Below are positions 5,056 through 58,200 of a DNA stretch of 64,000 nucleotides, one piece after another. A model generated the notes under the pieces. The model made no database searches and had not been told where the DNA came from. It saw only the letters and a list, made by a program, of their open reading frames with translations. Within the stretch, counting starts at the first letter, position 1; every line of letters begins with the position of its first letter. This stretch comes from Amoebophrya sp. A120. Lineage: Eukaryota > Protista > Dinoflagellata. The position numbers and the translations under genes are program-made. The stretch lies in contig CAJINV010000002.1 of the NCBI GenBank assembly GCA_905178155.1, positions 4,893,709 through 4,957,708 on the forward strand. Direction: 5' to 3'.

Positions 5056-7849
5056 TCAGGGCGAAAAGTATTTGATTCGTCCTTGCGTGATGACGCCTGG
5101 CTGCGCCCGGTTTGATCCGATGTTGCAGGTGAGCTCGTTGGGGTTACACTTGTCGAGCCACTGCATGTCTTTGCTGTGCCACGCCGTGCTATCAAAATGA
5201 AAAATCCCCCCTCCCCATATTGAAAAGCTATGTTTCCGAAGGTTTGTGTTGTTGATTTGAGGCCACAAATCACAGGCGTCTCGCAAGAAGACAAGGGCAG
5301 AAGTTTCCGCCCCATTATGGAAGCGATGCGTCATGCTGTTGGGCTTAAAGGGGAGCCGTTTGCCATGCTGAGCAACTAGATCCATACGCCCCTGCCTAGC
5401 CCGGGGATCTGGCCGCAGTGCCGCCCTGCAATACAAAGCTGATTTGTGTACACAAATCCAGCAACCGAAATTTCGTTTTGATATGGGGAGGGGAGGGTTT
5501 TCCTTGCAATACGTGCTTCGTCCCGACCACGGCGCCGGCGCGTCCTGCCGACGCATCTGCTCCCCGAAGCGACGCTTGTACTCCCTCGGGTCCGAAACGT
5601 GGTCGTATCCTGAGCAAAAACGTACCCACACCAGAGTCAGGATGGGGATTTTGCAACACACGCCTAGGAGTTTTGTGAGTCACACATCACAAGCTGCAGT
5701 CCGTAGCGTAGTGCAGGTTCGCAAGGCCATCTGCATCAGAAATCCATCTGCTCATCCTGTTTACAGCATTACAAATTCCAAAACACGATTGGAAATGACT
5801 CTCATGGGGATGCGCATTACAACTCTTCCGGTCTTTGCAAATCTGCATTACAACTCTGCTGTGGGTACGTTTTTACTGAGGATAGGTCGTCGTCGGGACT
5901 CAGCCAACCCTCGTCGGGACACGCCTCCGTTTCGAACTCACGACCCTCCTGCTGGAACAGCACGCGGATGTACCGCAGCTCTCCGTCCGCCGTGTTGTCC
6001 GCCGTCTCGAACCACACCGCCATCTCGAAGGGCTTCTCCGTGTCGATCACATTGCCCGCACCGGGACCGTACACACCCTCGTCCAGGAAGTACTTTGTCT
6101 TCAACCCGCAGCCGATGACGTCGCAGTACCGCTTATCCTTTGTGAAAACGTCCCCACCGCATTTATGTCATGCAAATCGCTAAAGGAACATCCATCTAAT
6201 GCGCACTTCCTTGAAAACAAGCATATTTATATTTTGTGATGTTCTGATGGTTGTGTTTTGGCATTTGTGATGGTAACACGAGGATGAAAAGCTCGATTTG
6301 TGATGTCGCGGCTGCACAACTAGCTATACGACGAGCACATCACTGCAAAGCCCAAACTTGTCATGCGCCGCAACAGCATCAAAAACGAAATTCCCAATTT
6401 GACCACGGAGTGCTGTCATGAGACCCGATTTCACACAGGATACTGCTTACGGTTCTGGTTGTGCCGGTCGTTCACCAGCGAGCGCACGCCGGGCGTGAAC
6501 ACTTCGCGCAGCTCCGCCTCGGAATCCGCACACAGGTGCGTCATCACCCCCAGTCCGACCTTGTTCAGCTCCACCAAGTCGAGCTCGGGACAGGGGGCCA
6601 ACGCCACCCCCGAGTCGCAGTCGCCGCCGTCCTCCTCGCGGCCCGAGGCGACCAGGTACCAATTGTTGTTGCAATCGCAGCCGTAGTCCTTCGTGTTCAG
6701 GGTCATGGACACCACGGAGTTTAGCAGCGACTGTGGGTACATCACCACCAGGTCCTGGTACTCCTGCGCTCCGTCCTTGTAGTCCCTCGGAAACGGCCGC
6801 ATGCCATTGCTCCCGGTCGTCGTGGTCGCAGCATCGTTGGAAGTCGTCGTGGTGGAGGTCATGGTGGTTGTACCACCTGCGTTGAGGAGAGATCCCCGTG
6901 CACCCGTAGGCGACACTACCGTACCCGCTGCTGCTGCACTGTTTCCACCGAGAAGGGTGGAGGTTCTCGTCGTGCCACCCCCGTTTTGAAAAGGCGTCAC
7001 TCCAGCGAAATTGCTCGCACCACCGTAGGCACGAGGCTGCAGTTGGGACGAAGTTGTAGATGAACTTTCGCAACAGCTCGCTGTGTCTCCGTCAGAAGTT
7101 GCTGAGGATGATGAAACCCATCTACTTCCCCTTCCCCCGCCACCACCCTGCACCGCATCAAACGAAGTTGCGACATTGTAAGCCTGGCCGGGAGAATTCA
7201 CATTTTGGCTCATGCTGGTCGTGCTCAACGTTCCCGGTACAGGAGCGGAACCACTTGAAATAGATTGCGCCACTTGTTGGGGCTGGTCCTGGCGTTCCTT
7301 CACTTCTTCCCGTTTTTCATTTTCCTCCATGTGCAGAAAAACCGACGAGCTTCGTGTCTCATTTTCGCGATCGGTGTCAAGAAGATCCGGATCTAGAACT
7401 TGCGCAGAAGGAGTCTTCTTGTAGTTGTTCCCTACCGGAGCTGTAGATCTCTTTGCCTCGTCCGGTCGAGCACCTGCTCCGCCAGAAGTAGTGAATGAAG
7501 TTCCTGCCGGTGCACCAGAAGGGACCGCGGGTCCTCGTCGTTCCTTTCGGGCCAAAAGGGAAGCAGGAGGATGCACCAGTGTGGATTCTTGGCTCTTTTG
7601 CAGGTGGTTGGAATCATGGTGAAGATCTTCCGTTCGAAAAGCTTCACCTCCTTCTCCTGCGCCCACAGCCTTCGTTTTTCCATTGTTCTTCAACAGCAGG
7701 GCCTGGGCGGTGTGGAAGAAAGCGAGATTGGAAAGTTGAAGAGTTGCCAGAAGTCGTGGCACGCCGCTGCAAGAAGCTGATGAAACAGCGAGCAACGTCA
7801 GCCCGCGGCGTCCTCTTCGTCCTCTTTGCACGGGCAGCACGGAGGACAT
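5056..7849 (-). CDS. Glycoside hydrolase family 7-like (cellulase-like) protein, ~622 aa, 3 introner introns
   Basis: Exons approx. 7849-6448, 6133-5890, 5605-5517, 5189-5056 (1869 nt, in frame). Motifs GCDCNNNWYLV, GDCDS, CPELDLVELN (cf. GH7 catalytic EMDIWE), CDVIGC, YGPGAGNVIDTEKPFEMAVWFET and AWHSKDMQWLD occur in GH7 order. Confidence 0.75.
5190..5511. mobile_element. Introner family A (TIR TATCAAAATGAAAAATCCCCCCTCCCCATAT)
   Basis: 322 bp, direct repeat (DR) cgtgc/cgtgc. Removal joins GRST|AWHSK. Confidence 0.92.
5606..5884. mobile_element. Introner family C (TIR TATCCTGAGYAAAAACGTACCCACA)
   Basis: 279 bp, DR ggtcg/ggtcg. Removal joins PDDD|HVSDP. Confidence 0.92.
6134..6442. mobile_element. 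Degenerate introner, family C-like
   Basis: 309 bp, TATCCT...AGGATA ends with decayed inner TIR, DR ccgct/ctgct. Removal joins QNRK|RYCDVIGC. Confidence 0.8.
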
Positions 7850-9105
7850 TTTCCGCAACACGAAAAGCAAGAAAGCAAAAGCTAAAAGATAAGATTTTTT
7901 ACCAACAGAACAAATCGTTCCAGTTTTTTACATGCAGAAGCAGTAGTAGGAATACTACTACATAGTCGTTGAAGTCATAAACATAAACTTGAAACTAACA
8001 TCCGAGGAAATACTGGGGCAGCCAAAGTTCCCTGTTTTGTTTCATTATCAACACGACCTTTGATGAGTAAGAACGATTCAAGAGGTGGTGGACGATGCAC
8101 GTTTATTCCCATTCGCTTCTGTGGCTGTGGCTCCGCTAGGGACGATTGACGCAAGGACCAACATGCTAAGACAACTTATGAATAACGAAAAGACACCAGC
8201 ACGCGCGATGGAGAACGACTGGAAAAAGGAGAACGAATTCGAATGTTCAGGAATAATGGGGTATACTTACAAGAACGGAGAAATATATACGCGACTATCG
8301 AAAAGAAACCAAACTACCTTTGCAGAGACACTGGGTCAGAACACAAAGCACGCGACCTACGCAAGTTGCTTGTTGCATACGCTTACGCACACATACGGAG
8401 TATAGGCCTATGAAATTTGCAGGAGCAGAAAACAAAGCAAAAACTGGTCCTCCTCGCAAGGATCCAGTAGGTGCAGAACCAGTTCGTCACAAGAAATCTC
8501 GCATGAATCAATCCTCCACTTCATCAACAAGACAACAGCGGAGGCGTCAAAATTTGGGTCTTATCACCCAGGGTAAGCCCAGGGAAGGGGTGCTGAAAGA
8601 GAAGACATACTTCCGATTGCGAAGCGGAAGCAGATGAGAGGACGATAATTGACAGACTTAGTACGAAAATTCGCAATGTCCGAAGGTTCTTAGTTTTTTC
8701 GAAAGTGCTGGAAAAAACGCATTCACATACTGCTGGCCCAAACTCGTCGGGATGAGAAACGCAAAACTTACTCCAGTGGTTAACCGTACTGCGGTCGTGG
8801 TTAGCCGTATGTAATTAATCCACACCGTACTGCTCTCTCTTATCGTTCGTACGTTCGTAATATGAGAGTGGACAAAAGCTCCCCCTGCTGCTCCCCTTTA
8901 TTTGTAAATGAATATGAAACGCAGGAAGAAACTCGCTATGCTTGCGCGACCAGATCGTGGAGCCCAACAAACCAGGGCCACAATCTTCGTGTCGTAGATT
9001 TATCATGCAGTACTGTTGCATTTTTGTTTTTGTATGCTCTTGCTGTTCAATCATGCCCTACTTCAAAAAAAAAGGACGCAGGGGGGGGGTTCTTGTCTTC
9101 CACTT

Positions 9106-10810
9106 TCATACGTAGTACTGCAGCTCCACCATCATAGCGGCGGCCAGGAGCAGCGCCTTTTCGTTCGGTCCCGCGTAGTCCGGCGGGGTCACTTTGAAGG
9201 TCTGCGCGTCCGCAAGCGCTTCCTTTAGGATTTGCTTGAAGCCTCCGCCCTTCTTCTGCAACATGCCCACTCGCGCGTGGGTGCGTTCGTCAAAGATGGC
9301 GTACTTCGCGTCCCCAAACGGACAGCACGCGCCCAGCTGGCACTCGGACCCCTCGACGGTGTACAAGTGCTCCCCCAGCTGGTTGTAAACCATCTCCCGC
9401 GTGCCGCAACACTTGCAGTGGTCCTGCACGTGGCCAATGTTCTTGAAGCTACTGCGGCCCGTGCTGTAGTTCGGCAGGACCGCTTGCACGTCGAAACGCG
9501 GCTTACAAAAGCTCGTACACAGACACGGGCAGCAGCAGCACTGGCACACAAAGTCCTTCTTCATGCGCAGCACTTTCCCGGAGGACGGGGCGGCGTCGTG
9601 CTTCCGGCGAAAGACGTGGTTCCCCGCAAACTCACCCTCGTATGCGTTGTCTTTCGCGTTGTCCCCCGCGAAGAGCTCAAACGTCAGCGATCTGGAGGGC
9701 CCGCAGCAGCACTTCTGGAACCAGCTGCTGTCTTCGGAAATGTACAGGTTGGGTCCGATTTGGTTGTCGTAATAGTCCATGGCTTTCACCGTGTACTTGT
9801 TCCCCAGTTCCACCCCCACCAGGTTCTCGACAATGTCCCTCTTGCTGACCTTTTGGATGATGTAAAACTGGTCCCCGAGCACGTCCGGCATGTTCCCCGT
9901 GGTCAGCGGGTTGTTGCTCCGCGGACTCCGGCTGTCTTTGGTGGAAACGGGACTCACGGTGAAATTCGACCCGTCCGCCCCAGCGGTTGTCGTTCCCATC
10001 TGCTGCATCTGGGGCTGCTGCAGGTAGGCGTATGTGTTGTAGTACCCGCTCTCGTCGGACTCCCCCCCGTAATCGTAGTTGTTTGTTTGCTCATCGTAAT
10101 TGTTGTCCATGTTCGTTCCATACTCGAAAAAGCCTTTACTCGAAAGCATATCCACATTGCCGTAGTTGGTCGCACCGTACGAGGCATTTTTAGTAGTAGC
10201 CCCCGTCGTCCCGCCATAGTATTGATTCTCCACCAGGTCGGGAGATGATCCGCTGTAGAAGGCCTCGCCCTCGCCCTGAGCCCGCTTCCGTTTTTCGTGT
10301 TGTGACGCCACGCTCTGCGCATTTCTCTCCTTCTGGGACTGCCGCTGCCAGGTGGCTTCGGTGAAGCCCTGGACGGGCCTGGTTTGGTTGTAGTAGGTGT
10401 ACGAGGCATTTTTTGTATCTTTGTGGTTCATCCCGCTGTTGCTACTGTCGCGGTCATATTCGCTCGTGCTGTCCTCGGCCTCCTCGGTGGACTCGATCAC
10501 CTGGATCGGATCCTCCTCGCCGTAGAGGTTATCCCACGCAAAAACTGTTTCACTGTGATGATTTTGCAAGAAGCGCATCACAAGTTTGTTACACATGACA
10601 CAGAAAATTTGCCATGCGCGTTTCCCAAGGGAAAACACGCTTGGAAATCCAATGTCTTGCAGGTGCAACAAGACACGTAGTTCTGTGTTCCGTTTTCTGC
10701 ATCACAAGTTCACAGTGAAACAGTTTTTTCTTGCGATAGAGGTCGGTGTTTTCGTAGTAGTTGTTCTCGTTGCCCGCACCCACGGGGTTCGTGTTCCACC
10801 AGGAAGCCAT
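9106..10810 (-). CDS. Phospholipid scramblase-family protein (~496 aa), 1 introner
   Basis: Exons 10810-10744 and 10529-9106 (1491 nt). C-terminal scramblase domain: ENLVGVELGNKY, CCCGPSR, Cys-rich segments, ADAQTFKVTPP...EKALLLAAAMMVELQYY. Confidence 0.85.
10530..10738. mobile_element. Introner family E (TIR TATC..CGCAAAAACTGTTTCACTGT)
   Basis: 209 bp, DR gaggt/gaggt. Removal joins NTDL|YGEED. Confidence 0.92.
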
Positions 10811-11735
10811 GATAATTTTCTCCGAGGGAGGGACACTGATTTTTCCTTTTCGGAAGGTCTATATGCGCAACAAGCACGAGAGGACCACAAGCCGCGCCTC
10901 GGCCTCTGGAAATAGACCTTCTACCACTGACATTGACTTTGAATGACAAGAAGATTGCGAATAACTAAATGGTGTAGATAGAAAAGACGTCTCTTCCGGG
11001 GACGAAAGGCGAAAAGGTCGTAAAGGAGTAGTAAAACAAAATTTGTTTGATTTGTGCGCCTCCAGCTGGACTTTTTTCACTATACAGAAAAGTTAAAGTG
11101 AAAGCAGTAAACCACGAAAAACAAGAAAAGCAAATTACGTCAGCACGCAAGAGTACAGAAGCACGACAGGAAAACACAGGGACGAAAGAAACGAAGAGCA
11201 GACGAAGTTTTTTGCGGCACGACACATCTTCAAAGGACCAAACTAGAGCTTTTTCTTTGTAAAAACGAGTCAACACCGAGCGTACGATGAAGACCATCAC
11301 CATGCAGGTCTAGGAATCTAAAATAAACGAATCAGATGGAACAAAATCCCAGTGACATAGCGTACGTAAACCACATCTTCGAACACATGCTTTCAGCCGT
11401 TCACCCTCACCCTCTCCGCGTTTCTTACAAGAGCGTGGCAAGACTACGAAATGGTGAGGCTCCTGTGGTGGAACTTCAGTGAAGGATGATCGAAACAAAC
11501 ACCAAAAAAGCATTTTCAACATCAAAATTCGATTGAAGTACTTGCTTGTGCTATCAATCAAAATGAAGAAAAGCAAAAGTAACGGACGAACGAAATTGGA
11601 AACCTTAGAAATAAAAGTGGGCCAGAAAAAGGTAGGTGGGCCCATCTTTTTGACATTTTGAAAAACTACGATCAAAGAAATCGAAACGCTTTTATGATCT
11701 TCGGCTACACCAGTGCTTTCATACTAACCAAAATC

Positions 11736-14700
11736 TCATTGCCCGCTCCTGGCGTGCTTTCTCTGCTCCCTCGCTTCGTCGGCGGATCTTGACATTGCGG
11801 GAAAGATGAATTTCTCCACAATGGCCGTGTCCGGGCTGTATTTCCTGATCGCCACGAGCCAATCCTGCAGGTTCTGCCCGACCAACCCGACCACCTTCTC
11901 CTTCTTGCCGTTCACGTTACTGCCGACGACGAGAAGAAGCTCCAAAACGTCAAAATCTTCCAACAGCAGGTCCAAACTCGGCAACTTGCTACTTTGATTA
12001 GAGTAGAAATTATCATTGTCCCCGGGGGAGGAGGACGTGACAGCACCAAAAGCTTTTGAATCAACAGACGCCGCAGCCACTCGCGCGGCTTCCTCGTGCG
12101 CCGCGGAGGCGAACAGGCCGGTCGGACTGGAAAACAGCCCGTTTTTCGTGCTGCTCGAGAGACTCTTCATTTTCGTGATCATCTCGGCCTGCTTCTGCAT
12201 TTGCGAATCCCGCTCGTGCGACTCGTTGGTGGTGGAGAAATCGCCGCCCGTGCGCTCCCAGATCTCGTGGTCGGTCTTCAGCCGCTCCCGGCTCGCCTCT
12301 TATTGCAGTGAAAAGTGCCCCCCACCCCTGAAATTGCAAAAATTTGTGATGCGAAGTTTCCCAATGAAAACTTTTTGTCATGCATGAAAGGCGTATGAAT
12401 CTTTCTGATGTAGAGTCTCGTCGTGTTTCGCATCGCTTGCATGACAAGCACCGCTCTTGCTGTGATCTTTTGCAATGCAAATTTTTGCTCTTCACGATCG
12501 GAAATCTGTGATGCCGATACATGCAAGAGTGCGAATGTTTCATTTGGAAAGGTTTGCAATACAAATGCTTTCAAGTTCGGGGGTCGGGGCATTTTTCATT
12601 GTAATACTTCCTCCCGGTGCTTCTCGGCGAACTTGCTCGCACGCATCGCCTTCATCTTATCGGCTGGTGAAGACGTCGACCCTTGCGTATTAGAATCAGC
12701 ACCAGCCAAGTCCTTTTCCGCTTCCTTCTCCTCGGCGAGCTTCTTTCGCCGCATCCTTTCCCGCCGGCTTTTCGCCAGCTCGCGCTGTTTCACCAAACTC
12801 TCCTCGCGCAGCCGGTCCGCCACCTCGTCGCGCCAGATCTCCCGGGCGGTTTTCTGTTCGCCAAGTTTTGTCAGGGCCGCGGCGTTCTTGCTGGACACCT
12901 TGCCCTCGGCGAACAGGTGGGTCGGCAGTTGGGTGATGATCTTTTTCGTGACCAGGAGACTCACGCGCTGGTTGATAGCCGCCTTCTGCTCCTCCGTGAT
13001 TTTCGCCAACTCCTCGATGGTCTCGTCGTCTTCGTCCATATCGTCGAAAGCACCGCGACCGGAGCCTTCCGGACGTTCCTCGAAGTTTGAGAGATCAGAG
13101 GAATCTTCGTCCTTCAATAACTCCTCCACACTTGTAGTTGTTCCTATTTCTTTATTTCCACCACTTCCAAACTGTGACGACGCTATTTCCTGTTTCCCGT
13201 ACTTCAACTTCAGGACGTTTTCCGGCCCCAGCATGTCCTCCAGCGCCAGGTACATGTTTCCGCTGTGAAACTCCTTGTGTTTTTGCCGCACGCTCCACAA
13301 CAACTTCCCGGACCGCTCCCGCATGGTGGTCGCTTTTTTCACCGCCTTCTCCGGCGAGCCCTCCGCGATGGCGCGCACGTACCGCGTGCGGGCGTTGTTT
13401 TCGTACTGGAAATCGATGAAGTCGTCGATGGACTCGTCCGTCATCACCTTGCCCGGTTTCATCTGGAACTCCCGTTTTTTCCGCCGCTGCTCGAACTGCT
13501 GCTGCATCGACAGCGGCGCGTGAACGGGCGCGGAAGAGACCCGGAAGGCGGGCTGGAAGTTTTCCTCTTCTTCAGCATCCTCGTCGTCTTCGTCGAGAAA
13601 CTTTTCCTCGTTCGGATCGACTTGGTCTGGCTCGTCGACCGCAAGAAGATCTTGTGCATTCTCATCCTCCTCAGCCGAGTCTAATAATTCCGCGGACCCT
13701 TGCTGGGTCGTGTCCCTCAGAAGTTCTCGTACTACGGAAGTAGTAGAGCCCTTGCTAGCACTACTTCCCTGCTGCCTTTGTACTTGCTCTGCCGCGGAAC
13801 CACGGGCTACTCCAACTCCTCCTGCTGCGCGAGGATATAATCTCTGTGCACCTGTACTACTAGAAGCACCTCCAGGTTTCGTATTTCTCGCCGTCTGTTC
13901 CTCTACCACATCCCGAACGAGGACGGAGGATTTCAGAGATTGCTTCGTCTGGTCCACAAGAGCTCCCCCTGCAGTAGAACTTCGACCCCGCTGTGTCGTA
14001 GTACCCAGCGACGTTTTTGACCCACTTTCTCTGCCACTCACCACAGAAGGCGTGGTTTCGCGAATACTCGACGCGGGCCGGTCGCCCTGGTGGGGCTTCA
14101 TGCCCTTCTTGTGCTTGGCGCGCGTGCCCCGGATGTTGTTACGGATATTGTTATTGCCCTCCTCCGGCACCTCCATCAGATCCATGTCAGATTCGTTTGA
14201 GGAGTTGCCGTTGTGGAGGTCCGACATGAAGTAGAACGGCTTCTCGTTTTTCGTGAATTCCTCCTCCACGTCCGAGTCCGCGAGACAGGAGGCCAGTTCG
14301 AGCTCGTCGTGGTCTACCACTTCTAGTTGTAGCTCTGAGGTCGTGACAAAGTCGAGGTTTCGTTGTTCTTCTTGTTGTGTAGCAGATTCAAAATGATCTC
14401 CGGTCGTAGACGAGAAGAACCGGAATTGATGCGGAACTTCCGTCGACGAGGACGAGGTCTGCTCATTTACAACTCCTGCGTTCATCAACACTCTTCCGCT
14501 TGTTCTTCCAGTTGTCTTATCATTATGGTCATACTCGTGGTTGTGCTGCACCATGCGGAATTCACCGACCGACTCGTCTGTCAAAACAGCGGAGTCTTCG
14601 TGCAAGAAAGCGCCGTCTGCGTCGATTGCAGTATCCTCCACAAAAACAGCATCGTTTTCATCGAAATACGTCCCAAGGTGAATTTCCTGTTCCTCTACCT

Positions 14701-17700
14701 CCTCAGAGTCAGATGACCCCACCGGTTGTTCGTGAAAATAAGCCAAGTCCTGTTCAAGTTGCAGACTATCCACACTGTTGGTGTCATCTTCTGGATAGAA
14801 CATGCTCCCCAGCAGTTCCGCGCCTTTGCTTTCCCTCTCGAAAGAGCTATTACCACCTGCGGCTAGATTTTTCCCTGCTCCACGCGAGGTCGTGGTGCCA
14901 CTTGCAGCTTCCGCATTGTTCCCACCCGCCGGACTCGACATCTGCGAAGAAGATGAGTTTTCTTTTCCAACGAAAACTTTCTTCATCGCGGTGTTGATGG
15001 ACTGCAATAATTGCACTTCCTTCTTCCTCTCGTTCACCCCCACCGTCAGGACGCACCCGCGGCTCGCGTGCAACACCGCGCGGACCAACTGCGTGCGGCC
15101 CCGGTTCCTCGCCGCGATCTTCAAATTGCGCCAGGTCAGCTTCGCGCCCAAATGGGTGTTGGACGGCAGCTTCTCGAGGACAGAAGCCGGGAACTGGGAA
15201 GTAGATATCACGTGCAAATATGCCTGGGTCTGGAAGCTTGCAAACAGGTTCAACATGACACATGAGGTCTGGAATGCAGGATCTAGCATCACAGATTCTG
15301 TGAGATCTGTATCATGCCTATCCTGCATGAGAAACTCACTCCCAAGGTGGTCAAAAATGGACCGCTGTTGGCAATCATGCAACACAAATTTTTGCATGAT
15401 CCAGATCTAGCATGACAAGCTACATCCTTCCAGACCCAGACATATTTGCAATGCATAGTAGAACCGTAAGAACTACCCGCGTCTTTGTTCAGCGTCGAAC
15501 CGGGACTGGAATTCTGCTTGTCGTCTGGATTGTTCTCTCTACTGCTCATCCTCACACTGATTCCAGTTGTTCCATCGACGTCCAAACCGCCGGACGTAGT
15601 TGCAGATGTAGTCGCAGCGTTCGCCACCGCAACCGGTTTGCCGGTCAAAAAGCAGGCGAGCTTCTCCACGTCGAATTTCAGGGACAAATACACGTCCTTT
15701 GACAGCTGCAAACTGTTGTACAGATGTGACCGGTCCCCCAGCTTTGTCATGCTATTCGCCAGCTCCTGCAGATTCATGATTTTCGCACTCGACGCAATGC
15801 TGTTGTCGAACAGGAAAGCCCGTTTTTCGCTGATCTGCTGCAAAAACTGCGCTTGTTTCTCCTCGACCAAGAGCTTGACCGCGTCTTTCGCGGAGGCAGA
15901 ACTGGTCCCGGTTGCAGCCGCCGCGGTGGTCGCGGTGGTCGTGCTGTTCCCGATGATGTTTCCCCCGACCGTCAGCCCAGCGATTTCCTCGAACTGGGGG
16001 CACATTTTCGTGGACAAAAAGATCTCGAAGGACACGTCCTCGTGCGAAAACTCGACGGACAGCTTCGCGTTCATGCACTTCCCGTGGTACCCGCCGTAGC
16101 TGCACGCCTTTTGGTTCGCCATCGTGCGGTTCGACCCGTACCCCCCGAGCAGCGGGGTTTGGAAAACCTTCCCCTCACTCGTTAAAATGATGACGAGAAG
16201 GTCCAGCTTGTTGTTCTTTTTCGTGGAGGAATTGAAGATCGGGAGCAGAACCGGGAGGATCAAGGACGAAATCTCGTAAATATCCATTTCCACCTTCATC
16301 AAACCCGGCTTTTTGGGTTCTTCTCTGTAGTACCTCGCAGCTGCAGAACTGGTTTGGAGGTTCTTGGTGAAAGAATTGTTGTTTGATGTCATCTGCTGTT
16401 GCTGTTGTACAACAACTATCGGCTTCAACCCCAGAATCAAGTGGCTCAAGTTCTTTCCCGCGACGGATTTTTCGTTCTCCTGGTCCGGCGTACTCTGGCC
16501 CGGAACAACAGCTTTTGATGCGCCCGCTGCATTTTTTTGTGCGGATGAAGATAGTACTCCGGACTTGCTCACATTGCCGCCTGGCGTCGTCGACGCTGTC
16601 GTGTTCTTGCTGTTGTAATTCGTTTGTGCAATAGCTTTGTCCTGGATGAAATCGGCGGGTGCGCCGAAGAGAATTTTGTTCCAGCTGGTGTGGTCGTCAT
16701 TCGCCACGTCCACCAGGGACCGGATCAGGTTCCACAACCGGCTCCCGCGCCTCAATTTCCGCACCACCTCGATCCGGCGAATGTCCTTCAAGAAGATGTC
16801 TTTCGTGCAAGTTACCGGCACCTCGGCCCCGTAGTCCCGGATCTCCCCGGAGTAAATCTGCAGGACCAGCTCCTTGTGGTGCAGCGACAAAGATTTTTCG
16901 ACCAGTTCGAAGTACCTTCGGTTGTTCGTTTTCCCTTCGCGGTCGGAGTTGGCGGCGATCCGCGTGGTGCAGTCATTGGGGATTTCCGGAATCGACATGG
17001 ACGCCAGCTGTTTGTTCGACTGGTTGCTGTCGTGTTTGTCCTCTTGGCCTTGTCGTTGTTTCTTTTGCAGAAGCTGACCAGAAGCTGTTGCGGTGGTGCC
17101 AGTAGCACCCACCGCGGCGCCTTCATTTTCGATCAAATGAGTCGCCGCTTCCTGGCGACAGAGTTTCATCTTCTCGGCGAATTTTTCCCGGAGAATTTTC
17201 TCCGACAACTATCAAAATGAAAAATCCCCCCTCCCCATATCAAACCGGAAATTTGTGATGCTGATTTGTGGCCGCAAATCAGCTCTGTATTGCAGAGAGG
17301 CACTGCGGCCAGATCCCCAGGCTAGGTAGGGGCGTATGGGTCTAGTTCAGCATGGCAAACGGCCCCCCTTTAGGCCCAACAGCATGACAAATCGCTTCCA
17401 TAATTATGGGGCGGACGCTTCTGCCCTTGTCTTCTTGCAAGACAGATGCGATTTGTGACCTCAAATCCGCAACACAAATTTTTGCAAACATACCTTTTCA
17501 ATATGGGGAGGGGGGGTTTTTCTTCTCAATAACAACTCAAACCGCGCCATCGTGGTCAGAAAATCGTCGTCGTTGAAGTTCCCCTGGGCGGAATCGGAAG
17601 CGGCTTTGTTGTAGTTCAGATACTGGTATCAAATGTAAAAGTGTCTGGGTCTGGAAACTTGTGATGCTGTGTGGCGTATCATGAGGAGGCGACAATTGCT

Positions 17701-20700
17701 GGCTCAGCATGACAAGTTTCTGAGCTTCTAGGTGTTGCCTATTCTGCATGACAAACTACGTTTCTGCATGACAGAAAAGTATGGCTCTTTGGTAATGTGC
17801 ATGACAGATTTAAGAGTCATGCCAGACAAGCATGACAAACTTGCACTCTTCCAGAACCAGACATTTTTACATTTGATAACTGGTGCGTGTAGCTGTGGTA
17901 GAACGCGGGCGGGAAGGTGATTGTTGTGGTCTATTACAATGAAAAATACCCCCACCCCCGAACTTGAAAGCATTTGTATTGCAAACCTTTCCAAATGAAA
18001 CACTCGCCCTCTTGCATCTATCAGCATCACAGGTTTTCAATCGTGAATAGCAAAAATTTGTATTGCAAAAGACCCCAGCAAGAGCGGCACTTGCCATGCA
18101 AGCTATGCGATACACGCCTACATTCTGCATCAGAAAGATTCATACTCCTTTCATGCATGACAAAAAGTTTTCATTTGGAAACTTCGCATCACAAATTTTT
18201 GCAATTTAGGGGTGGGGGGCACTTTTCACTGCAATATGGTCATGGCCGCGTCGAGTACTGGCGCAGAAGTTGTTGTACAACTTCTGTCGTCCACCGGCGA
18301 AGTAGATAACGCGCCGGTCAATGACACAGCGTTCGTCATGCTGTTCATCCGGCGGCTTTCCCGCAAATCCTCCATCGCATTCTCGTACGCCTCGCGGGAC
18401 TCGTAGTAGGAAGACCCGCGCTTCTGCATGATTTTGTCCGATACGTTTCGGGTCTCGTACTTGTCCGGAAGGATCTGCGGGGAATACTTCTTGTTTGACG
18501 TCAACGTCGTCCCATTTTTCACCACACTTGCGGCCATCTCGCGGAGAATCAGTTCCTCCGCGGAACCGAAGAACCCGACGTTCGATCCCTTGATGTAATC
18601 TTTCGTGCGGGTGTTGAAGTGCCGGCGGAAAAACCGGGAGTGATGCGATTGGTTCACCGACTCGGATTCCGCGTTCAGCAGAGCGGAGGCTCGAGATGTT
18701 GACTGTTGCCCAGACTTAGTACCAGATGAACTGTTGTCACGACCAGCCTTGTAGTTGTCCGCATTTCCCGCACCACTCGCATTTCCCGCCCCACCGCCGC
18801 TCACATTGCTCCCCGCGATGATCGCTTTCTTTCCTGACAGATGGACCGGCAACAGGGATCGCAGCCACTTCGCTTCTTCAAACAGGTACGGATCGAAATC
18901 GTATTCGTCGGCGATAAAGCTCTTCGCCTGCTCCAGTAAAGCAGCCGTGGTGACGATCTTGTTGTGCGTCACGCCCAACGTTGCGAGCGTCGGCGCCGCA
19001 GCGGCGGCAGAAGCGCCGCCGGGTTTATTCATGCCAGATTCGTTGTTCGTCCCCTTGCTATCGCGACCGTGTAAGGATGATCCACCTTCTGCGGAAGTTG
19101 TATACTTTTTCCCATGCGCAAATTGCGTCGTTTTGTCCGCGTGATGAACCAAGTCCATCGCCCGTCGTGCGTATCAAATGCAAAAATGTCTGGGTCTGGA
19201 ATTATGCGCGATTTGTCATGCTGCTTTTCCATGACCCATGAGGTCTGGAATGCAGGACCTAGCATGACACATTCTGCGAGACCTTTCTAATGCCTATCCT
19301 GCATGAGAAACTACCTCCCAACTTGGTCAAAACTGGACGACTTTTGGTAATCACGCAGCACAGATTTTTGCATGCTGCAGATTTAGCATGACAAGTTGCA
19401 ATCTTCCAGACCCAGACATTTTTACGTTTGATAGTGCGTGTAAGTACGCAAATTCCAACAGAGGCTGTACCATGTCCGTCAGTTCCGCCCACTGCGTGTG
19501 GTATGGAGGCGTCAGGATTAAAATCGACAAAGTTGAAATGATTTGCCATGCATAAAATGCAAGGCATGAAGCGCCTGTCTTGCCGGGATGGCAAGTGAGG
19601 CCGACTGTCAGCCTGTTTAGGGTTTGAAATAGAGCTGCTAAAGTAGCACGACAAAAGTAGTCGCTTGTGCCCAAACAGCATGGCAAATTGGATTCCGGTG
19701 CTCGGAAAATTTGTCATGCACCGCTTGGAAATTGGGCTTCCGACTGGTATCTGTTTTATGCATCACAAATTATTTCAACTCTGACGATTTCAATCCTGAC
19801 GCTTCCATATGTGGTTGCGCTGGAATAACCGCCCCGCGAACAAAATCTTCACGTTTTCCTTGTCCCGGAGCGGCTGGCTGATTTCCGGAAATAGTTTCTG
19901 CATCGGGTTGATGATCATGTTTTGCTGCAGTTTTCCGTCAGTCAAGCTGGAGGAAGCCCCAATTGCGAAGATTTCCTTATTGATGGTTGACACATTTTTC
20001 GCGGAGCCGACGACGGTGAACCGGGACTTCGCCAGGTTTGCGTGCGCGATGGACAACTTATTCGAAAAAGCGGAGTCTAAGTTCACCACTTCCACTGGCC
20101 TGCGCACCTTCTGCCCCGTGGCGCCGAGAAGAGTATCGGATACGACTTCCACCTTCGGCCTGTCTAGAGAAATTTCCATTTGCTGGGCGGAGTTGTCGGA
20201 TTTCACGTTGGAAGTTGACATGACCGGATCCCGCAACTCCGACCACTTCTCCATCCTTTTGTCCACGTTGACTTCCAAAGCGTCCTGCGCCTGCAGTAGC
20301 CCGTGTTGATCTCCGACAAAGTAGTCGCTGAGCTGTTGCGACTTGCTGTTGTTTTGACCCGCCAGCTGCAGAATTTTGTCCTGCTGCTTTTTTCGCTGCA
20401 GTCGGAGATTTTCCGGGAGGTACGGAATCAGGTTACTCCCGTCGGGCTTCGCGTTCACGTTCGTGTCCGACCGGAGACCGTTCAACGTGGCGGTGAGCTT
20501 CGCAATGTAGGAATTCTGCTGCGCTTCTTGTTCTGGGGTGAGAGGATTTTTATCAGCTTGGCCAGCGGATTCATCTTGGCCACCGATCTGGTGAAGATCC
20601 TGATCTCTTCCTAACGGAGCGAAAAAGTCGTAATCGCTTGTGGAGAATCTGTCCGTGTAAAAGCTGAAAGGAATGCCGTAAATCAGCGCCAGCCGGTCCG

Positions 20701-45100: not shown

Positions 45101-46863
45101 CTCAAGTGTTTGTCTTGCTACACATGCAGGACAAATGATTTTTACCGGTGTTCTCCCTTAGGATCCTGGCATGGCAAGTTTTCTTTCTAATGTGTAGCGA
45201 ACTTGTAATGCAAAACTTGCAAAATCCCGACAGTGAAACAGTTTCTTCTTACGATAGTGGAGAACTGGCCGTTGTTATCGTGCGTCACGATTGGGTTTGG
45301 GTCTAATCTTGGCGACATGGGTGGGGACATCGCGGGGGACCGTGATCCGCTGGCGTGGTTTGTGTTTGTGAGTGTCCCACCCCCCGGGGAGAGAGCCCCT
45401 CCTCCCTGTACTAGCACCGGTGACGCTGTTCCGGACTGGTGAGGCGAATTTTGCTGCTTTTCCTTCGAACTGGGTCCGAATCTGTTAGGAGTGGACGTAG
45501 AGCTTGCCTTTTGACCTCGTCCGTCATGATCATCATTTTCTCCCCCGCTGTTCTTCTGATCTCTGAACAAATCCCGACTGTTCCCCAATTCAAACGACAT
45601 TTCTGGTGCGTTGTACGCGAAACTCGGCGTGGACAGAGGGGCCGCGTCTTCGTTTTGATGCTGAGTTCCTCCAACCTGTAACGTCGTGTTGCTGTTGTTC
45701 TGCGGTGGCTTCACGATGTGCGGCAACTCCCCGATATCGGACACACGGGATTGACCAAGTGGTTCCTGACCTTCGGTCGACATACGCGACTGATGCAAGT
45801 CCAGCTGTTCCTGATCCAGGTGAACAGCTCGTATAGTAGAACTTTTAGCCGCATTATTTCGCTCGTGAAGATGTTCTCTGCTTTCGTGCTCCATCGTCGT
45901 GACATGATCGTTGACACTGCCAAAGAGCTGCATCTCGTGGCTCAGAAACGAGTCTTTTGACTGTCCCCGGGCGGAACTGGGGGTCAAAGGTAAGTTCTGT
46001 TCGTGGTCCGATTGGTTCTCGGAACTGCTCTATCAAATGCAAACATGTCTGGCTCTGGAAAGTTGGAACTTGTAATGCTAGCTTTACATGCCTGGGAAAT
46101 CTGTATTGCATAACCGACAAAAGCCGCACCCATTTTTATCATGCAAAAACGCAGTTTCTCATGCGGGCTGCCTATGAGAAAGTGCTCCGGAAAGTTGTCA
46201 TGCTGGTCTGCATTCGGAAGTGTTTCCATCATGCACATTTTAGCATCACAAGTTTCCAGACCCAGACATTTTTGCATTTGATACGCTCACGTTCCCGCAG
46301 CTACTCCCCGGCCGACTACTTGTCGCGGGCGACTTCGGTTGGTTTTGGTTCAAAAACCGCCGATATCAAATGTAAAAATGTCTGGGTCTGGAAAATTGGA
46401 ACTTGTGATGCTAACTTTGGACTCTAAAAAAATCTGTATTGCATGACCAGCAAGAGGAGCCACATTTTTGCTACGCGAGGAGGGCATTTGTCATGCGGAA
46501 ATGGCATCCGGAAGCTTTCCAAAAATCGGCGATGCTGGGTCATGCATTACAAGCGTCATGGGTCATGCCGGACAAGCATGACAAGCCTTCCATTCTTCCA
46601 GACCCAGACATTTTTGCATTTGATAGACGGGAGTTCGGGGTCGCGTTGGGGGGGAGGAGCAGACTGATGTTGGACGACTGGGAGGCGACTGGGTTGAAAC
46701 TTTGATCCCGGCTGGGGGACAGGTCGCCGTGTGAGTTGTCCTCGTGAGAGCGGGAATTGGAGTTGTCGTTCTCGTCGGAGTTGTTGCTGACATTTTTGCT
46801 GATATTGGAAGTGGGAGAATCCAGCTCCAGATTCGCCGCCGTCGTGGGGGACTTTTTTCCCAT
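36141..46863 (-). CDS. Six-TM cation channel with C-linker and cyclic-nucleotide-binding domain (CNG/HCN/EAG-like), ~2525 aa, 9 introners
   Basis: Removing 9 elements leaves 7578 nt in frame. TM region with SHFLGCLWFFI, C-linker MDRHSLPYELQRRVLQFHLY, VPFFQD, and cNMP domain FSPGDVVIRCGDTSSEMYFILKG...YFGEFALL...RRTAWVRA. Confidence 0.85.
38318..38468. mobile_element. Introner family F (TIR TAT....TGCAAAAGTATCG.ACT.GTA)
   Basis: 151 bp, DR aaaca/aaacg. Confidence 0.88.
38527..38832. mobile_element. Introner, A-type TIR with divergent interior
   Basis: 306 bp, DR gatcg/gatcg. Confidence 0.88.
39201..39528. mobile_element. Introner family A with altered right terminus
   Basis: 328 bp. DR ccagt is extended to the 12-nt repeat ttcatcaccagt. 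Confidence 0.88.
39664..39974. mobile_element. Introner, A-type TIR with unrelated interior
   Basis: 311 bp, DR gtagg/gtagg. Confidence 0.9.
41479..41742. mobile_element. Introner family B (variant interior)
   Basis: 264 bp, degenerate DR tagca/tggcg. Removal joins DLGA|SVAA. Confidence 0.85.
43951..44966. mobile_element. Introner family B (262 bp type) carrying a 754-bp nested insert
   Basis: DR atagt/atagt. 1016 - 754 = 262 bp, the same length as the 19172 and 28902 copies. Confidence 0.88.
44004..44757. other. Unclassified insert inside an introner; T-rich left end (A-rich 3' end on the minus strand)
   Basis: Interrupts the family B sequence GCTAAAT^CTGAATGATGC with no evident target duplication. 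Confidence 0.7.
45048..45256. mobile_element. Introner family E
   Basis: 209 bp, DR gtgga/gtgga. Inverted relative to the 10530 copy. Confidence 0.92.
46031..46283. mobile_element. Introner family B
   Basis: 253 bp, DR tgctc/cgctc. Confidence 0.9.
46364..46625. mobile_element. Introner family B
   Basis: 262 bp, degenerate DR gccga/gacgg. Removal joins PNSR|RFLN. Confidence 0.88.
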
Positions 46864-49031: not shown

Positions 49032-49455
49032 TTTGATTTTTTGTACTTACAGCCTGCCCTGGGGTTACGCCATGGATGCGAGACGACTTTATCTAGACAA
49101 TCTTGATGCGGCTATTTACGTGTGCGTCACCGCTGCATGTCGGCGACATTGCAATCGCAAGTTTGATGACGAAAATTTGATGTAGTCGCATTTTCATGGA
49201 TCATGTAGTGCACCCAAACGAAGCGACAGAGCTGACGATCCAAACAGTCCGAACGTAGTACTGAGACTCACTCGGAAACAATCCTCCAATATTCGTCACT
49301 CAGCTATTCTCTTCCTCATTTCGACAAAAGCAAACTCACAAAACAGTCGACGGTTGCAAAAACACCCATTGCAACCAGCTTCATTCTACGCCAGGTGGTA
49401 GATCAAGTGTAACCCGGTGTAGCTAGTCCACGAAACGAGTTGACTTTAACTTATT

Positions 49456-52319: not shown

Positions 52320-54641
52320 CTATGCTCCAAAAAACTTCTTCCGTGTGTAGGGATTCAGCACGACGCCCGGCTTGGTGTTGAAGGTGAAGATCGCATTCAC
52401 GCGCACCTGATCCCCCAGGACTTTCGTAACCTCATGCAGCGACCGGTTACCGGCGAAAAGGTACAGCGCCCCGGGCTCGAGTTTCGGGACAATGAGGTTC
52501 TTGTTGGGCTGCTGTAGTGCTGGCGATCCGTCAGTAGCGCAAGAAGAAGCGAGGGTCGTACTAGAACTGGGGATGTTCTTTGCCCTTTTTCTGTTCTTAC
52601 ACCAGATGCAGGGTAAAATGCTTCGTTTATTCCGGTTTTCGTTTTCCTTCGGGACGGCTTCTACCAAATACCTCTTCTCAAAATCCGCCCACGTTTCGTC
52701 TACTCGGGATTGGTGTTCTACTACTTGCGGACAGTTATTTTCTTCATCGCAAACAGAAGTTGCTGGTGCTGACGTTTTTCCTTTTCCGATTCCGACGTCC
52801 TGCCCGATTCCTTCTCCTTTTCCGATTCCTTTTCCGTGGTCCATCTGTTCGCAAACGTGATCCACGAACTCGCGACTGTCCGGCCAGTAGCGGAACTTCC
52901 CCCCGCCGCAACTCGTTTCCTTCTATCATAAGGAAAAATCCCCCCTCCCCATATTGAAAACGTATCCGACTGAAAATTTGTCATGCGCATTTGTGACCTC
53001 AAATCCTGTCTGTCTTGCAAGAAGGCAAGTCCAGAGAGAGCCCCGCACTTTGCAGGCGGTTTGTGATGCTGTTGGGCTTAGAGCATACACATTTGTCATG
53101 CTAGGCGCCTACGTCAAAACCTCTCGACTGGGGGTTGCCATATACCTGCAGTGCTCTACTGCAAGACAAATCTGATTTGTGTACGGAAATCCAGCATCAG
53201 AAACTTCGTTTCGATATGGGGAGGGGGGATTTTTCCTTTTGATACCTTCAGGATCAGGTTTATCGAAAACTCGCTCCGGTCGAAGTGCCACCCGAGCTGG
53301 TCCCCCTTCTCGAAGAAGTTGTAGTACACCCCACCGTATGCATTGCAAAAGTATCGTACTAGTATACTAGATTGCATTACAAATTTGCTCAGCATGAGAG
53401 CTGGGATTTGTCATGCTGTTTTTCCTTAAGGACAAGATTTGTCATGCATAATGGCAATTACTACGAGTACGATACTTTTGCACAGGATACACCGATTTCG
53501 TCTGCGGAGTGGTACAGTTCCGGCAAATCAAAGGTATGAAATGCAAAAGTGTCTGGGTCTGGAATGTTGCCGGGATTGTCATGCATATTTTGCATGGCCC
53601 AGGATGTCTGTAATGCATGACCTAGCATCGCAGATATTTAGAGGGCTTCCTGATGCCTAATCCGCATGACAAATGCCGTCCCCGCGTAGCACAAACTAGA
53701 CTCCTCTTGCTGATCATGCAATACGGATTTTTTTAGAGTCCAAAGTTAGTATCACAAGCTCCAACCTTCCCGACCCAGACATTTTTGCATTTGATAAAAG
53801 GCTTTCTTCAACAAATTCAGCAGCAAATCGGACTTGTACAACTCGATGAGCAAGGAAGTAGATATCAAATGTAAAAATGTCTGGGTCTGGAAGAGTGCAT
53901 GTTTGTCATGCTTGTCTGGCATGACTCTCAAATCTGTCATGCACGTTACCCAAGAGCGCCACTTTTCTGTCATGCAGAAACGCAGTTTGTCATGCAGAAT
54001 AGGCAACACCTAGAAGCTCAGAAACTTGTCATGCTGAGGCAGCTCTTGTGGCCTCCTCATGATACGCCACGCAGCATCACAAGTTTCCAGACCCAGACAT
54101 TTTTGCATTTGATAGTAGAACTACTACTACCATTTTGGGTACTAAAAGCCTTATCCTCGATCTCCTTTTGATTCACTAAAACTTTCCCGCTCTCGAACCT
54201 CTTCGCCTTCAGCAAGTGGGTCGCTCTTTCCTCCTTTTCAGGCGCTCCTGCTGTGTTTTCCAAGTACAGGTTGTGTTCTTCAAAACTCCTGAACCCTTTA
54301 CCCGCTTCATTTTTCAACGCCTCCGCTTCCTGTAACAGCTCGGAGACTGCGTCTTGGGAAAGAAAATTTTTCAGCACCACGATGCCGTCCTGCAAAATCT
54401 CCTGCCGGAGATCCCGCCCCTGAAAACTTTCCGGCCGGACGCCGCGGGGAAGAGGTTGGTCTTTTTCTTGCTCTCTTGCGGAGACGGGCACAGCAGGTGC
54501 TTCTGCCTCATCTGCGCCCTGTTCTTGGTCCAGCGGTGCCAGAGCAGATGTCATCTTGGATGCAGGTGCTGGCACAGTCAATGCGGAGCTCGTCGTGGGG
54601 ACGAACTCGCAAAAAAAGAACGCTTTCAAAACTGGCAACAT
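52320..54641 (-). CDS. Fe(II)/2-oxoglutarate-dependent dioxygenase (HxD...H), 4 introners; start may be 54554
   Basis: Spliced 1314 nt in frame: DGIVVLKNFLS, EHNLYL, YHSADEIGGVYYNFFEKGDQLGWHFDRSEFSINLIL, GGGKFRYWPD, LEPGALYLFAGNRSLHEVTKV, RVNAIFTF. Confidence 0.85.
52924..53244. mobile_element. Introner family A
   Basis: 321 bp, DR ccttc/ccttc. Confidence 0.92.
53337..53489. mobile_element. Introner family F
   Basis: 153 bp, DR caccg/caccg. Inverted relative to the 38318 copy. Confidence 0.92.
53535..53796. mobile_element. Introner family B
   Basis: 262 bp, DR aaagg/aaagg. Inverted relative of the 46364 copy. Confidence 0.92.
53863..54114. mobile_element. Introner family B
   Basis: 252 bp, DR gtaga/gtaga. 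Inverted relative to the 17627 and 21292 copies. Confidence 0.92.
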
Positions 54642-55220: not shown

Positions 55221-58200
55221 TTATTCCATCGACCGTCTAACCATCCCCGGCGACACCTCCGCTTGCGCTTGCACATACGCGCTACCAGCTCCAGCCTGTT
55301 GGGCTTGTGGATGCACGAAACCAGGCACAGCAGCCGTGGCTCCTACAACACCCTGTGTAGTACCAGCTGTAGGCGCGCTACCCAAGGTCGGTGGCCTGAT
55401 GTCCGCCGCTCTGTTTCCGAGGTGGATCATATTCGTAGCACCAGTGACATTAGTTGTTCCAGCCAGAGGCGGTTCCACGGTTGCCGTTGCTGCAGACGGC
55501 GCTACCGCAGTGCCGAAGTTCTGGTTCACGGGCGACTTCTGCTCGATCTGCATCGGCTGCCCTTGTTCTGCAGGCGGACTACGTGGTTGCGACGAAGGTA
55601 GCGAGGCGCGGAGCTCCTGTCCGGGTAAGCGCAAGTCCTCCGGCTTGATGCGCTTTTGATGAACTCTAAACGCGTCCGCTGGGTCGAAGGGGGTGAAGTC
55701 ATAACTGTAATTTTGGTTTTTTCGTACGATCATCTACTGCTGAGAACTACAACAACGACTGAAAAACGCAAAAAACACGTCTTGTTGTTGTTCAGGCATG
55801 ATCTTATAGGAAATGCAATAGAGCACTATACCCTAGAAGTTTTTCCAGTTCCAACAGCGCCTCGTCCTGCTGCTTCTCTGCCTTACTCTCTGCCGCCGGA
55901 AAGCTGAGTATCGTGATTGAAAACGTCCCCACACCAGAGTCAAGATGGGAGGCCTACTAGACAAATCAACCAGCTTTGGTTGTTTGGCATGACAAGTTTG
56001 TCCTCGTAGTGTGATGCTAATTAGCTACTTAGTTCAGAAGCATCACAGATCTAGCATAGCATACTGATTCTAGCATCACAAAATCCAAAACACGGCAAGA
56101 AAATGCTTCTCATAGGGCTCCGCTTGAGAAACTTTTTTGGGATGCAGAATTGCATGACAACTCTGGGGTGGGGATGTTTTTACACGGGATACTGAGCGCT
56201 ACAGCTTCTTTCCGTGTCATTCTCGCCCGTTGCTTGCCACTGGCATTCCGCTGCATCCACTCCAGCTGGCGACGCTGTTTCGATAAAAATACACACAATC
56301 TATCACAGAGGAGACATGAAATGGTATACGTTTACGTCTAGCTCATACGCATAATTTGCGTTGTACATTACGGAATAAACTGGCTTCTTCTTCTTCTTCT
56401 TGAATCAAACAACATCTTCATCACATCAGTATTTCTCTATTATTACCTTGTGTCTCTCCATCGCTTCCGGTAATAATTCCGCCGGCGCCATGTTCAGATT
56501 GACATATATTGAGAGGAAAAATCCCCCCTCCCCATATCAAAAGGAAGTTTCTGATGCTGGATTTGCGTAGACAAATCAGCTTTGTATTGTAGAGAGGCAT
56601 TTCGGGCAGATCTCCAGGCTAGATAGGGGCTTATGTGTCTAGTTGCTCAGCATGGCAAGCGGCTCCCTTTTAGGCCCAACAGCATGACAAATCGCCTCCA
56701 TAATGGGGCGAAAGCTCCCGCCCTCGTCTTCTTGCAAGATACATATGATTTGTGACCTCAAATCAGCAATACAAATTTTCGAAATCATACCTTTTCGATA
56801 TGGGGAGGGGGGATTTTTCCTTTCAATAACATACCTCGGATCCCCTAACTTCCCGTACTCCATAACCGACGTCATCTGCTTCGCTTGCAGTTTCTGCAAC
56901 GCCAACCTGCTCGCTTCTTTCCTTCTGTTCACCGCTTCCTTGTTGAACTTCAAGTAGCACTCGTGCGCCCGCTCTTCCAACTCCGCCGCGTAATTCGCGT
57001 TTGACTCGATGTCCATATTCAGATTCAGCAGGTTCGCTTGCTCCGACGCGGAAATAACCGCATCGGAGGAGGTATTGATATTGTTCATGTTCGCCCCAGC
57101 ACTACTTGTCGTGCTAGTATTGTTTCCCCCGCCGCCATGATCCAGCTTCTTCGCCACTTTTTCCTCCACTTTCCTCATGTTGTCCAGACTCATCGGCCGC
57201 CTGTACACTTCCGGACCGTGTTGATGATGAACTACAGCAGAGGTAGAAGTGTTATTTTTCGCTGAATCTCCAACTTCAGGTGCAACGACAGGAGCCTGCA
57301 CATGCACCAAATACGGGTTCACGTCCTTCAAAGTGACCAAACTCGGTTTTTGCTTCAAAAACAACTCCATGCTCTGAAACTGCGAGACCCTCGCCTGTCG
57401 CAGCGCTTTCCTCTTCCGGAACAGCTATCCAAGAAAAAAACTGTGTTAGTGTAGCTGTCTTGAGGTGACAGCATGACAGATCTGCTCTGCATGACAGACA
57501 AAGCCTGTCATGCGCAGCTAGTAAGTGAAAACACAAATGAAATAGGACAACTGCATGGTTGGCTAGCATGACAAGTGTAAAGTAACAGAGTTGCACGCTT
57601 TGCATCACAGACTTACACTTACACAGTTTTTTTCTTGCAATAACAGCCTCTGCATTTTCACAATGAACCGGTGCTTGAAACTCGCGGTCATCAAGGAAAC
57701 CTTGATTTTTCGAATTTGGAATCCCCGGTACACTTTCTGGATCTTCAGGGCCGCTTCGACTTCCGTGTAGCTGATCAGGTCGTTGACCGCGCGGTAGCCC
57801 CCATACTCTGTATCCGACAGAAACCGCTTCATCTTGCTCAATTCCCGTTCTTTCAACAAGATGTTCTGTTGGAGCTTGTCCCTTTGGAGCAACCTTTGTC
57901 TGCGCTTCATAGACCTTTGCAGCAACTCTTTAAACCGTTTCTTCCTCGCCATTCTCCGGACGAAATCCTGGATCTTCTTCGCAGCCAGGATCGCGACCGT
58001 AGACGTAGTCGCTGTAGTTGCTGCTGCTGTAGTACCTCCTCCGACGCCAGCAGTCGTTCCAGATGGTGTTGTTGTTGAAAAGGGAGCTGCACTACTTTTG
58101 CTGTCTTTTCTCACCTTCAGCATGTACCTCTTGTGCTGCTCTTCTAAACGCGCGATGTTCTTCTCTAGCTTCAGCTCTTCTTCTGTCTTCGGCGGCGGCT

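Follow-up and report, generated by a model that had tools for sequence, protein, structure and literature searches.

Evidence for exact, orientation-independent removal of introner elements in Amoebophrya sp. A120

The genome of the dinoflagellate Amoebophrya sp. A120 carries short transposon-like elements within its genes. We analyzed a 64,000-nucleotide (nt) stretch of this genome (contig CAJINV010000002.1, positions 4,893,709 to 4,957,708, ~51% G+C; hereafter the window), which contains 39 MITE-like elements (resembling miniature inverted-repeat transposable elements), 11,275 nt combined. Our analysis supports the conclusion that these elements are removed exactly, together with 5 nt, and independently of their orientation, the shared signals lying in their symmetric ends. 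They are the introner elements described by Farhat et al. 2021 (PMC7789003), which a first-pass annotation of this DNA, as far as its text goes, had not recognized. The text of that paper describes the same organism, an inverted repeat of the form TAT + 7 nt + AAA, direct repeats of 5 bp (3-5 nt at exon borders in the published motif), a hairpin, the same ~240-nt size, RNA-supported non-canonical junctions and co-oriented gene blocks, and it reveals no difference in kind from the window elements. Orientation-independent removal is real, yet it belongs to a system already described, for which two-way precedents exist, and is not new. What we add to PMC7789003 is an unbiased orientation tally, a set of empty sites and a limit on the register of the cuts.

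The elements were identified by an end-profile scan (36), from RNA joints (2) and by a generic repeat search (1), and once they had been removed, the element detector made zero further calls in the window. All but one are 151-328 nt long, the remaining one measuring 1016 nt. Each starts with TAT, has an A run at positions 11-15 and carries the mirror sequence at its other end; the arrangement of TAT, seven variable bases and at least three A, examined in the first 31 elements (62 ends) and in 178 elements, agrees with the published motif. A direct repeat of 5 bp borders every window element on both sides; its two copies are identical in 31 cases and differ in eight. Element interiors are non-palindromic, so an orientation can be assigned to each element, and the assignment produced no inconsistent alignment edge. 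Sixteen families had at least two members.

According to the first-pass annotation, members of one family occur in both orientations, and all five pairs that it quoted proved to be opposite. Interiors were aligned after trimming 30 nt from each end, with 100 shuffles as the control. Identity in the opposite versus the same orientation was 0.85 versus 0.57 for the family A pair (5190/17210), 0.93 versus 0.49 for B (17627/53863), 0.90 versus 0.57 for D (12301/17932), 0.72 versus 0.51 for E (10530/45048) and 0.66 versus 0.51 for F (38318/53337), and in each pair the opposite-orientation score exceeded the best of the shuffles. Across the window, the two orientations were represented 8:5 in family B, 4:3 in A, 4:1 in C, 2:1 in E, 1:1 in D and 1:1 in F, plus one element linked to the last.

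When each element was removed together with 5 nt, 11 open reading frames (ORFs) of at least 400 amino acids (aa) were obtained, all on the minus strand and together enclosing 38 of the 39 elements. This agrees with two further claims of the first-pass annotation, that the host genes all lie on the minus strand and that the frame is restored whichever way an element points. Removal of the element plus 0, 1, 3, 4, 6 or 7 nt left a longest ORF of at most 1107 aa. Removal of 2 or 8 additional nt gave ORFs of 4245 and 4223 aa, respectively; because these lengths also keep the frame, ORFs alone set the removed length only modulo 3. Transcript direction was taken from the ORFs and from three minus-strand GT-AG introns. 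The common strand of the host genes is explained by the co-oriented blocks in which A120 genes lie, which contain 98.5% of them (PMC7789003). One spliced ORF (52323-54728), identical over 437/437 aa to the A120 protein record CAD7933585.1, spans elements of families A and F and both orientations of B. This record and CAD7933555.1 are annotations of the same genome, transcript-supported according to the methods of PMC7789003, and are not independent proof.

The removed length was determined directly from contigs of a sequencing run, X1, which, like a second run, X2, was judged to be RNA from its behavior and not from its record. In the region 5000-24900, which contains 15 elements, 14 joints among the best 15 of 21 remove exactly the element plus 5 nt; the element at 24218 is not among the joints listed, and one X1 joint in this region was rejected as a repeat artefact rather than an excision. 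The joints include the family A element at 5190, removed in one orientation, and those at 17210 and 20892, removed in the other. A single 7684-nt contig lacks nine elements, including both orientations of family D, and the coordinates of its pieces add up. GT-AG ends are possible at one of the 14 joints and AT-AC ends at one. In the region 38200-54300, X1 and X2 mainly cover the gene at 47.3-49.1 kb and remove its three GT-AG introns, so that the runs that lose elements also splice canonical introns. The genes at 36-47 kb and 52-55 kb, and with them the elements at 45048 (E), 38318 and 53337 (F), and 53863 and 46031 (B), have no RNA cover, which is not evidence of retention; removal of 53337 and 53863 is backed by the identical public A120 protein, and for 38318 and 45048 the ORF is the sole support. 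All of this cover came from contigs; two raw-read runs, X9 and X10, contributed two reads each. A third run, X5, covered unique DNA of the same region at an even ~27-fold depth in all 30 bins, and its contigs run from one element across the exon into the next without a break; this DNA evidence comes from one sample, and the joints of the region are those listed, with 183 more beyond them. The loss of GT-AG introns from X1 is the behavior of RNA, and the even, unbroken cover of X5 is that of DNA in which the elements are still in place.

Comparison with a close relative indicates how the elements arrived. The relative was sampled as 134 loci, 620,066 nt in total, from a single other assembly, chosen by the family B end pattern. 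Two long matches were dismissed as unrelated repeats. One contig is orthologous to window positions 9.1-21.3 kb at 92-98% identity. The 11 window elements of this stretch comprise two at contig ends, two common to both genomes in the same orientation and seven for which the relative has an empty site, each with one copy of the 5-bp repeat. The repeat is therefore a true target duplication, and insertion was recent. At relative loci L074/L075 (~908-1544), a B-type and an A-type element have their own 5-bp duplications and the window counterpart (20298-20338) has none, so insertions have been gained in both lineages.

The relative's loci yielded 428 distinct elements, with duplication copies identical at 5/5 positions in 332 and differing in 96 (the detector required at least 3/5). 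Of these elements, 363 had 150-nt flanks, 156 a confident frame on both sides and 148 concordant strands; removal of the element plus 5 nt, modulo 3, was what the frame needed at 141 of these 148, and of the seven exceptions, two or more are elements whose identification is doubtful. Restoration of the frame was seen in both orientations of each large family: 23/23 and 36/38 in B, 5/6 and 10/10 in F, 9/9 and 8/8 in C, 5/5 and 9/9 in E, and 5/7 and 5/5 in A. Orientation relative to the gene, from local strand calls for 212 elements, was 34:47 in B, 9:17 in F, 12:13 in C, 8:13 in E and 10:8 in A. With locus-level strand added, it was 62:75 in B (p 0.31), 21:17 in C, 14:19 in E, 10:15 in A and 14:28 in F (p 0.044, losing significance once nine families are allowed for). 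This family tally, of the kind that the first-pass annotation had proposed genome-wide, reveals no significant bias after correction in the five large families.

Where the cuts fall within the duplication can be expressed as k, the number of bases of the upstream copy that lie inside the intron. Just two values, k=0 and k=1, are compatible with all 14 RNA joints: 11 joints have perfect duplications and permit any register from 0 to 5, whereas 6134 and 12301 set the upper limit of k<=1 and 8861 excludes k=5. If a single register applies throughout, as the use of the two informative elements assumes, it would be lopsided: the 5' cut would precede the inverted repeat by 0-1 nt, and the 3' cut would lie 4-5 nt beyond it. 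At 12301, the mRNA has the upstream copy. Two synonymous changes separate this copy from the relative's empty site, and it is the downstream copy that matches the site.

The sequence of the duplication is irrelevant to removal. In 147 perfect duplications for which strand and frame were available, NNAGG was seen 3 times versus 3.2 expected; GT-AG ends are possible in any register at 5/147 and GT/GC/GA-AG ends at 12/147, which departs from the GT/GC-AG pattern of U2-type introns. The first duplication base lies at codon position 3 in 92 of 178 elements (48 and 38 at the other positions); k=1 would give 52% phase-0 introns, as in spliceosomal introns, although a target preference could also produce this figure. 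AG is short at duplication positions 2-3 (1 versus 9.9 expected, p 0.001, among 64 cells), but the shortage is weaker in a larger set (11 versus 24, 26 and 18) and is a lead only.

We lean towards the view that the elements are removed by a relaxed major (U2) spliceosome, with the 3' cut set by distance. Because of the inverted repeat, a transcript has the same 25-30 nt at each end whichever way the element points, which accounts for orientation independence, and with identical ends a polar machine fits as well as a symmetric one. The spliceosome would then read signals carried by these ends. In the presumed register, k=1, the intron would start N-U-A-U, with U at +2 as in GUAU, and would extend 4 nt beyond the repeat; a pyrimidine tract would be provided by the U run that lies 11-15 nt within the 3' repeat, an A within the repeat could serve as the branch point, and the end-to-end hairpin may bring the splice sites together, replacing U1. 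Insertion itself was presumably carried out by a transposase acting in trans. The yeast-type donor GUAUGU resembles N-U-A-U, and the roles of pyrimidine tract and branch point are general knowledge of splicing rather than results obtained here. This reading is favored because most spliceosomal parts are reported without U1, the U at +2 is kept and canonical introns are spliced alongside. In A120, 83/89 spliceosomal proteins and U2, U4, U5 and U6 were found and no U1, and all nine predominant non-canonical motifs of Table S4 have T at +2 (PMC7789003), as k=1 predicts.

Several points weigh against a spliceosomal reading. The Table S4 motifs depend on how the aligner placed ambiguous junctions. 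In the 147 perfect duplications, neither G at +1 (42 versus 43.8 expected) nor AG at the 3' cut (positions 3-4; 16 versus 12.3) is favored, which is unusual for a spliceosome that also handles GT-AG introns, 35% of those in A120 (PMC7789003). The register comes from two elements of different families and may follow the element rather than the transcript. Differences between the ends that could point to a donor U or a branch A are weak (1 versus 6, p 0.125; 13 versus 4, p 0.049), neither being significant among perfect duplications, and asymmetries at repeat positions 1 and 3 were not borne out. The role of the spliceosome, the lariat and the branch point are putative, and the genome paper regards the position of A120 splice sites with respect to the hairpin as variable and does not settle the mechanism (PMC7789003).

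The same ends would also suit a separate, non-spliceosomal machine, in which a ruler endonuclease recognizes the end-to-end hairpin and makes staggered cuts at fixed distances and an RNA ligase joins the exons; a system of this type has been proposed for euglenid nonconventional introns. We consider such a mechanism possible but doubtful, and a dedicated A120 system that cuts ~1 nt before and 4 nt after the paired ends, in any sequence, and ligates the exons appears rather unlikely. For all 38 elements that were folded, pairing of the ends is predicted on either strand (~14-25 of 25 nt), the duplication sequence is free and U1 was not found in A120 (PMC7789003); moreover, euglenid nonconventional introns need inverted repeats and come off as circles (PMC12501133, PMC11282704). 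Pairing of the ends is, however, expected from transposon origin alone, stem positions 4-8 are frequently mismatched, and the U at +2 in the predominant motifs of both strains looks spliceosomal (PMC7789003). Nor was G-U wobble favored over A-C on the transcribed strand (257 versus 241, a weak test with young elements; private changes, 35 versus 42; interior control, 219 versus 210), and no selection for RNA pairing was seen.

Fully symmetric recognition, with cuts symmetric about the hairpin or floating within the duplication under guidance of the repeat, seems very unlikely. It would accommodate the 11 joints that permit every register, and 24 of the 39 mismatches between duplication copies fall at third codon positions, as if both copies were sometimes exonic; yet 17/39 are non-synonymous, all three restrictive joints retain the upstream copy, and at 12301 the mRNA uses that copy even though the empty site matches the downstream one. 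The first-pass annotation had placed all necessary signals in the symmetric termini or in motifs found on both strands and deduced structure-based or symmetric recognition. The non-palindromic interiors and the random target agree with signals in the termini; structure-based or symmetric recognition does not follow from them, the only fitting register being lopsided and G-U pairs not being in excess. Excision from DNA in some life stage, as with the internal eliminated sequences (IESs) of ciliates, is highly improbable. Inverted ends, a direct repeat and the absence of orientation bias would fit a transposase-type reaction, and X1 was only judged to be RNA; but X1 and X2 also lack GT-AG introns and cover over unexpressed genes, such introns were validated by RNA-seq against the genome (PMC7789003), and X5 covers every bin evenly with contigs that cross exon-element borders unbroken, among the joints listed, although a rare excised DNA form may occur among the 183 lower-ranked joints. 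Unlike DNA-excised IESs, which are absent from somatic DNA, the elements are kept in the X5 contigs of the one DNA sample analyzed.

Table 1. Host genes and introner elements of the window. TSD, target-site duplication; -, minus strand; > and <, the two element orientations; joint, removal seen at an X1 joint; empty, empty site in the relative.
Feature	Coordinates	Strand or orientation	Remarks
Host ORF, 648 aa stop to stop	5059..7927	-	3 elements removed
Host scramblase gene	8818..10858	-	508-aa spliced product matches A120 record CAD7933555.1 exactly; one exon also matched Amoebophrya proteins
Host ORF, 4700 aa	11739..30070	-	15 elements removed
Host ORF, 1156 aa	31200..35249	-	2 elements removed
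Host ORF, 2532 aa	36144..46884	-	9 elements removed
Expressed four-exon gene, longest frame 297 aa	47332-49128	-	GT-AG introns of 279, 159 and 124 nt; no introner
Host gene, 437 aa	52323..54728	-	spliced product identical to A120 record CAD7933585.1
Host ORF, 617 aa	56429..58828	-	2 elements removed
Family A	5190..5511	>	perfect 5-bp TSD; joint
Family C	5606..5884	>	joint
Single element	6134..6442		TSD copies differ at position 4; restricts register to k<=1; joint
Single element	8861..9110		TSD copies differ at position 1; joint
Family E	10530..10738	>	empty; joint
Family D	12301..12606	>	mismatched TSD copies (positions 1 and 4); register k=0 or 1; empty; joint
Family B	15206..15457	>	empty; joint
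Family A	17210..17531	<	empty; joint
Family B	17627..17878	>	also present in relative (98%); joint
Family D	17932..18236	<	empty; joint
Family B	19172..19433	>	empty; joint
Element tied to family F only via relative's copies	19502..19809		empty; joint
Family A	20892..21213	<	also present in relative; joint
Family B	21292..21543	>	joint
Family C	24218..24501	>	
Family C	26961..27229	<	
Element, family has more copies in relative	27632..27848		
Family B	27880..28144	<	
Family C	28570..28848	>	
Family B	28902..29163	>	
Family B	31610..31860	>	
Family A	33062..33382	>	
Family F	38318..38468	>	TSD copies differ at position 1
Element with A-like ends	38527..38832		
Family A	39201..39528	<	
Element with A-like ends, separate family	39664..39974		
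Family B	41479..41742	>	degenerate TSD
Family B	43951..44966	<	1016 nt; ~750 nt extra interior including T-rich tract; no long ORF
Family E	45048..45256	<	
Family B	46031..46283	<	TSD copies differ at position 5, informative for k=0 versus k=1 (k=0 would give Gly, k>=1 Ser)
Family B	46364..46625	<	degenerate TSD
Family A	52924..53244	>	spliced protein = A120 record
Family F	53337..53489	<	spliced protein = A120 record
Family B	53535..53796	>	spliced protein = A120 record
Family B	53863..54114	<	spliced protein = A120 record
Family C	55909..56191	>	outside any long ORF
Family A	56507..56828	<	
Family E	57426..57642	as 10530	
Element with B-like ends	60465..60731		degenerate TSD; beyond the range of the first-pass annotation (5190..57642)

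The elements and their hosts are listed in Table 1. Removal of the 1016-nt family B element preserves the host frame. The element at 55909, the sole one of the 39 outside a long ORF, has a perfect duplication and may lie within a small multi-exon gene or an untranslated region. Among 15 elements longer than 450 nt, the longest stop-free stretch is 224 aa; a transposase was found neither in viral contigs nor as a long ORF inside the long elements, and the elements had no match in Rfam. Four long calls in the relative (L028:1429, L039:884, L043:5059 and L058:10874) contain internal TAT..AAA ends, probably because elements are nested or adjacent there. Copies of the motif GCAWSACA and of its complement are ~50x denser inside elements than outside and point inward from both halves; the motif looks like a transposase-binding sub-terminal repeat common to all families. 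Five of its 11 copies outside elements fall in two introns of the gene at 47332-49128 and may be decayed elements; blast comparison of this gene's introns with the elements gave only weak matches of 27-30 nt. In the DNA run, part of the gene's 279-nt intron appears as a repeat. Among the host products, the 437-aa protein has weak PhyH/WelO5 matches below the cut-off. The predicted 4700-aa protein had no Pfam match in the five pieces scanned, nor did the predicted 2532-aa protein in its scanned pieces, and protein searches for the latter gave neither relatives nor an annotated 2,500-aa record.

Two-way introners have been described elsewhere. Those of Polarella and Aureococcus function in either orientation with canonical sites (bioRxiv 2020.10.14.339549, which also cites a two-orientation result of Huff et al. 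2016). In Aureococcus anophagefferens and in Polarella glacialis classes 1, 2, 3, 6, 7, 8 and 10 they are likewise transposon introns with terminal inverted repeats (TIRs) and target duplications, but their GT/GC/GA-AG sites are drawn from the element and its duplication, whereas A120 elements need none; Polarella classes 6, 8 and 10 are also reported to be biased to one orientation, in contrast to the Amoebophrya elements, which have no significant bias. Euglenid nonconventional introns are similarly MITE-like, with inverted ends that pair and junctions blurred by direct repeats, but they have CAG/CTG motifs, which were not found here, and circular products are reported (PMC12501133, PMC11282704). 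Introns of Fritillaria borealis also derive from transposons with TIRs and TSDs and have non-GT-AG ends, to which the spliceosome is reported to have adapted; there, AG-AC/AG-AT ends are dominant and TAC is the preferred target, whereas the A120 target is nearly random (PMC11282704). For Amoebophrya, 'orientation' is used only of genes and 'lariat' is absent in the text and supplement text of PMC7789003 that were accessible, and the literature searched, subscription papers (Huff 2016, Roy 2023) excepted, contained nothing on the orientation or register of its introners.

Together, these observations suggest that removal of A120 introners is exact and indifferent to orientation and target sequence, and that it seems to follow one lopsided register. 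Elements whose duplication copies differ (96/428 in the relative and 8/39 in the window) provide natural markers with which cut sites could be mapped genome-wide in RNA-seq. Knowing these sites would tell whether a relaxed spliceosome or a new cut-and-ligate machine acting on RNA is responsible, a question that dates from the genome paper. If a dedicated system of the latter kind is indeed at work, insertion would be harmless at any site and in either orientation, which would explain the tens of thousands of new introns in this genome.

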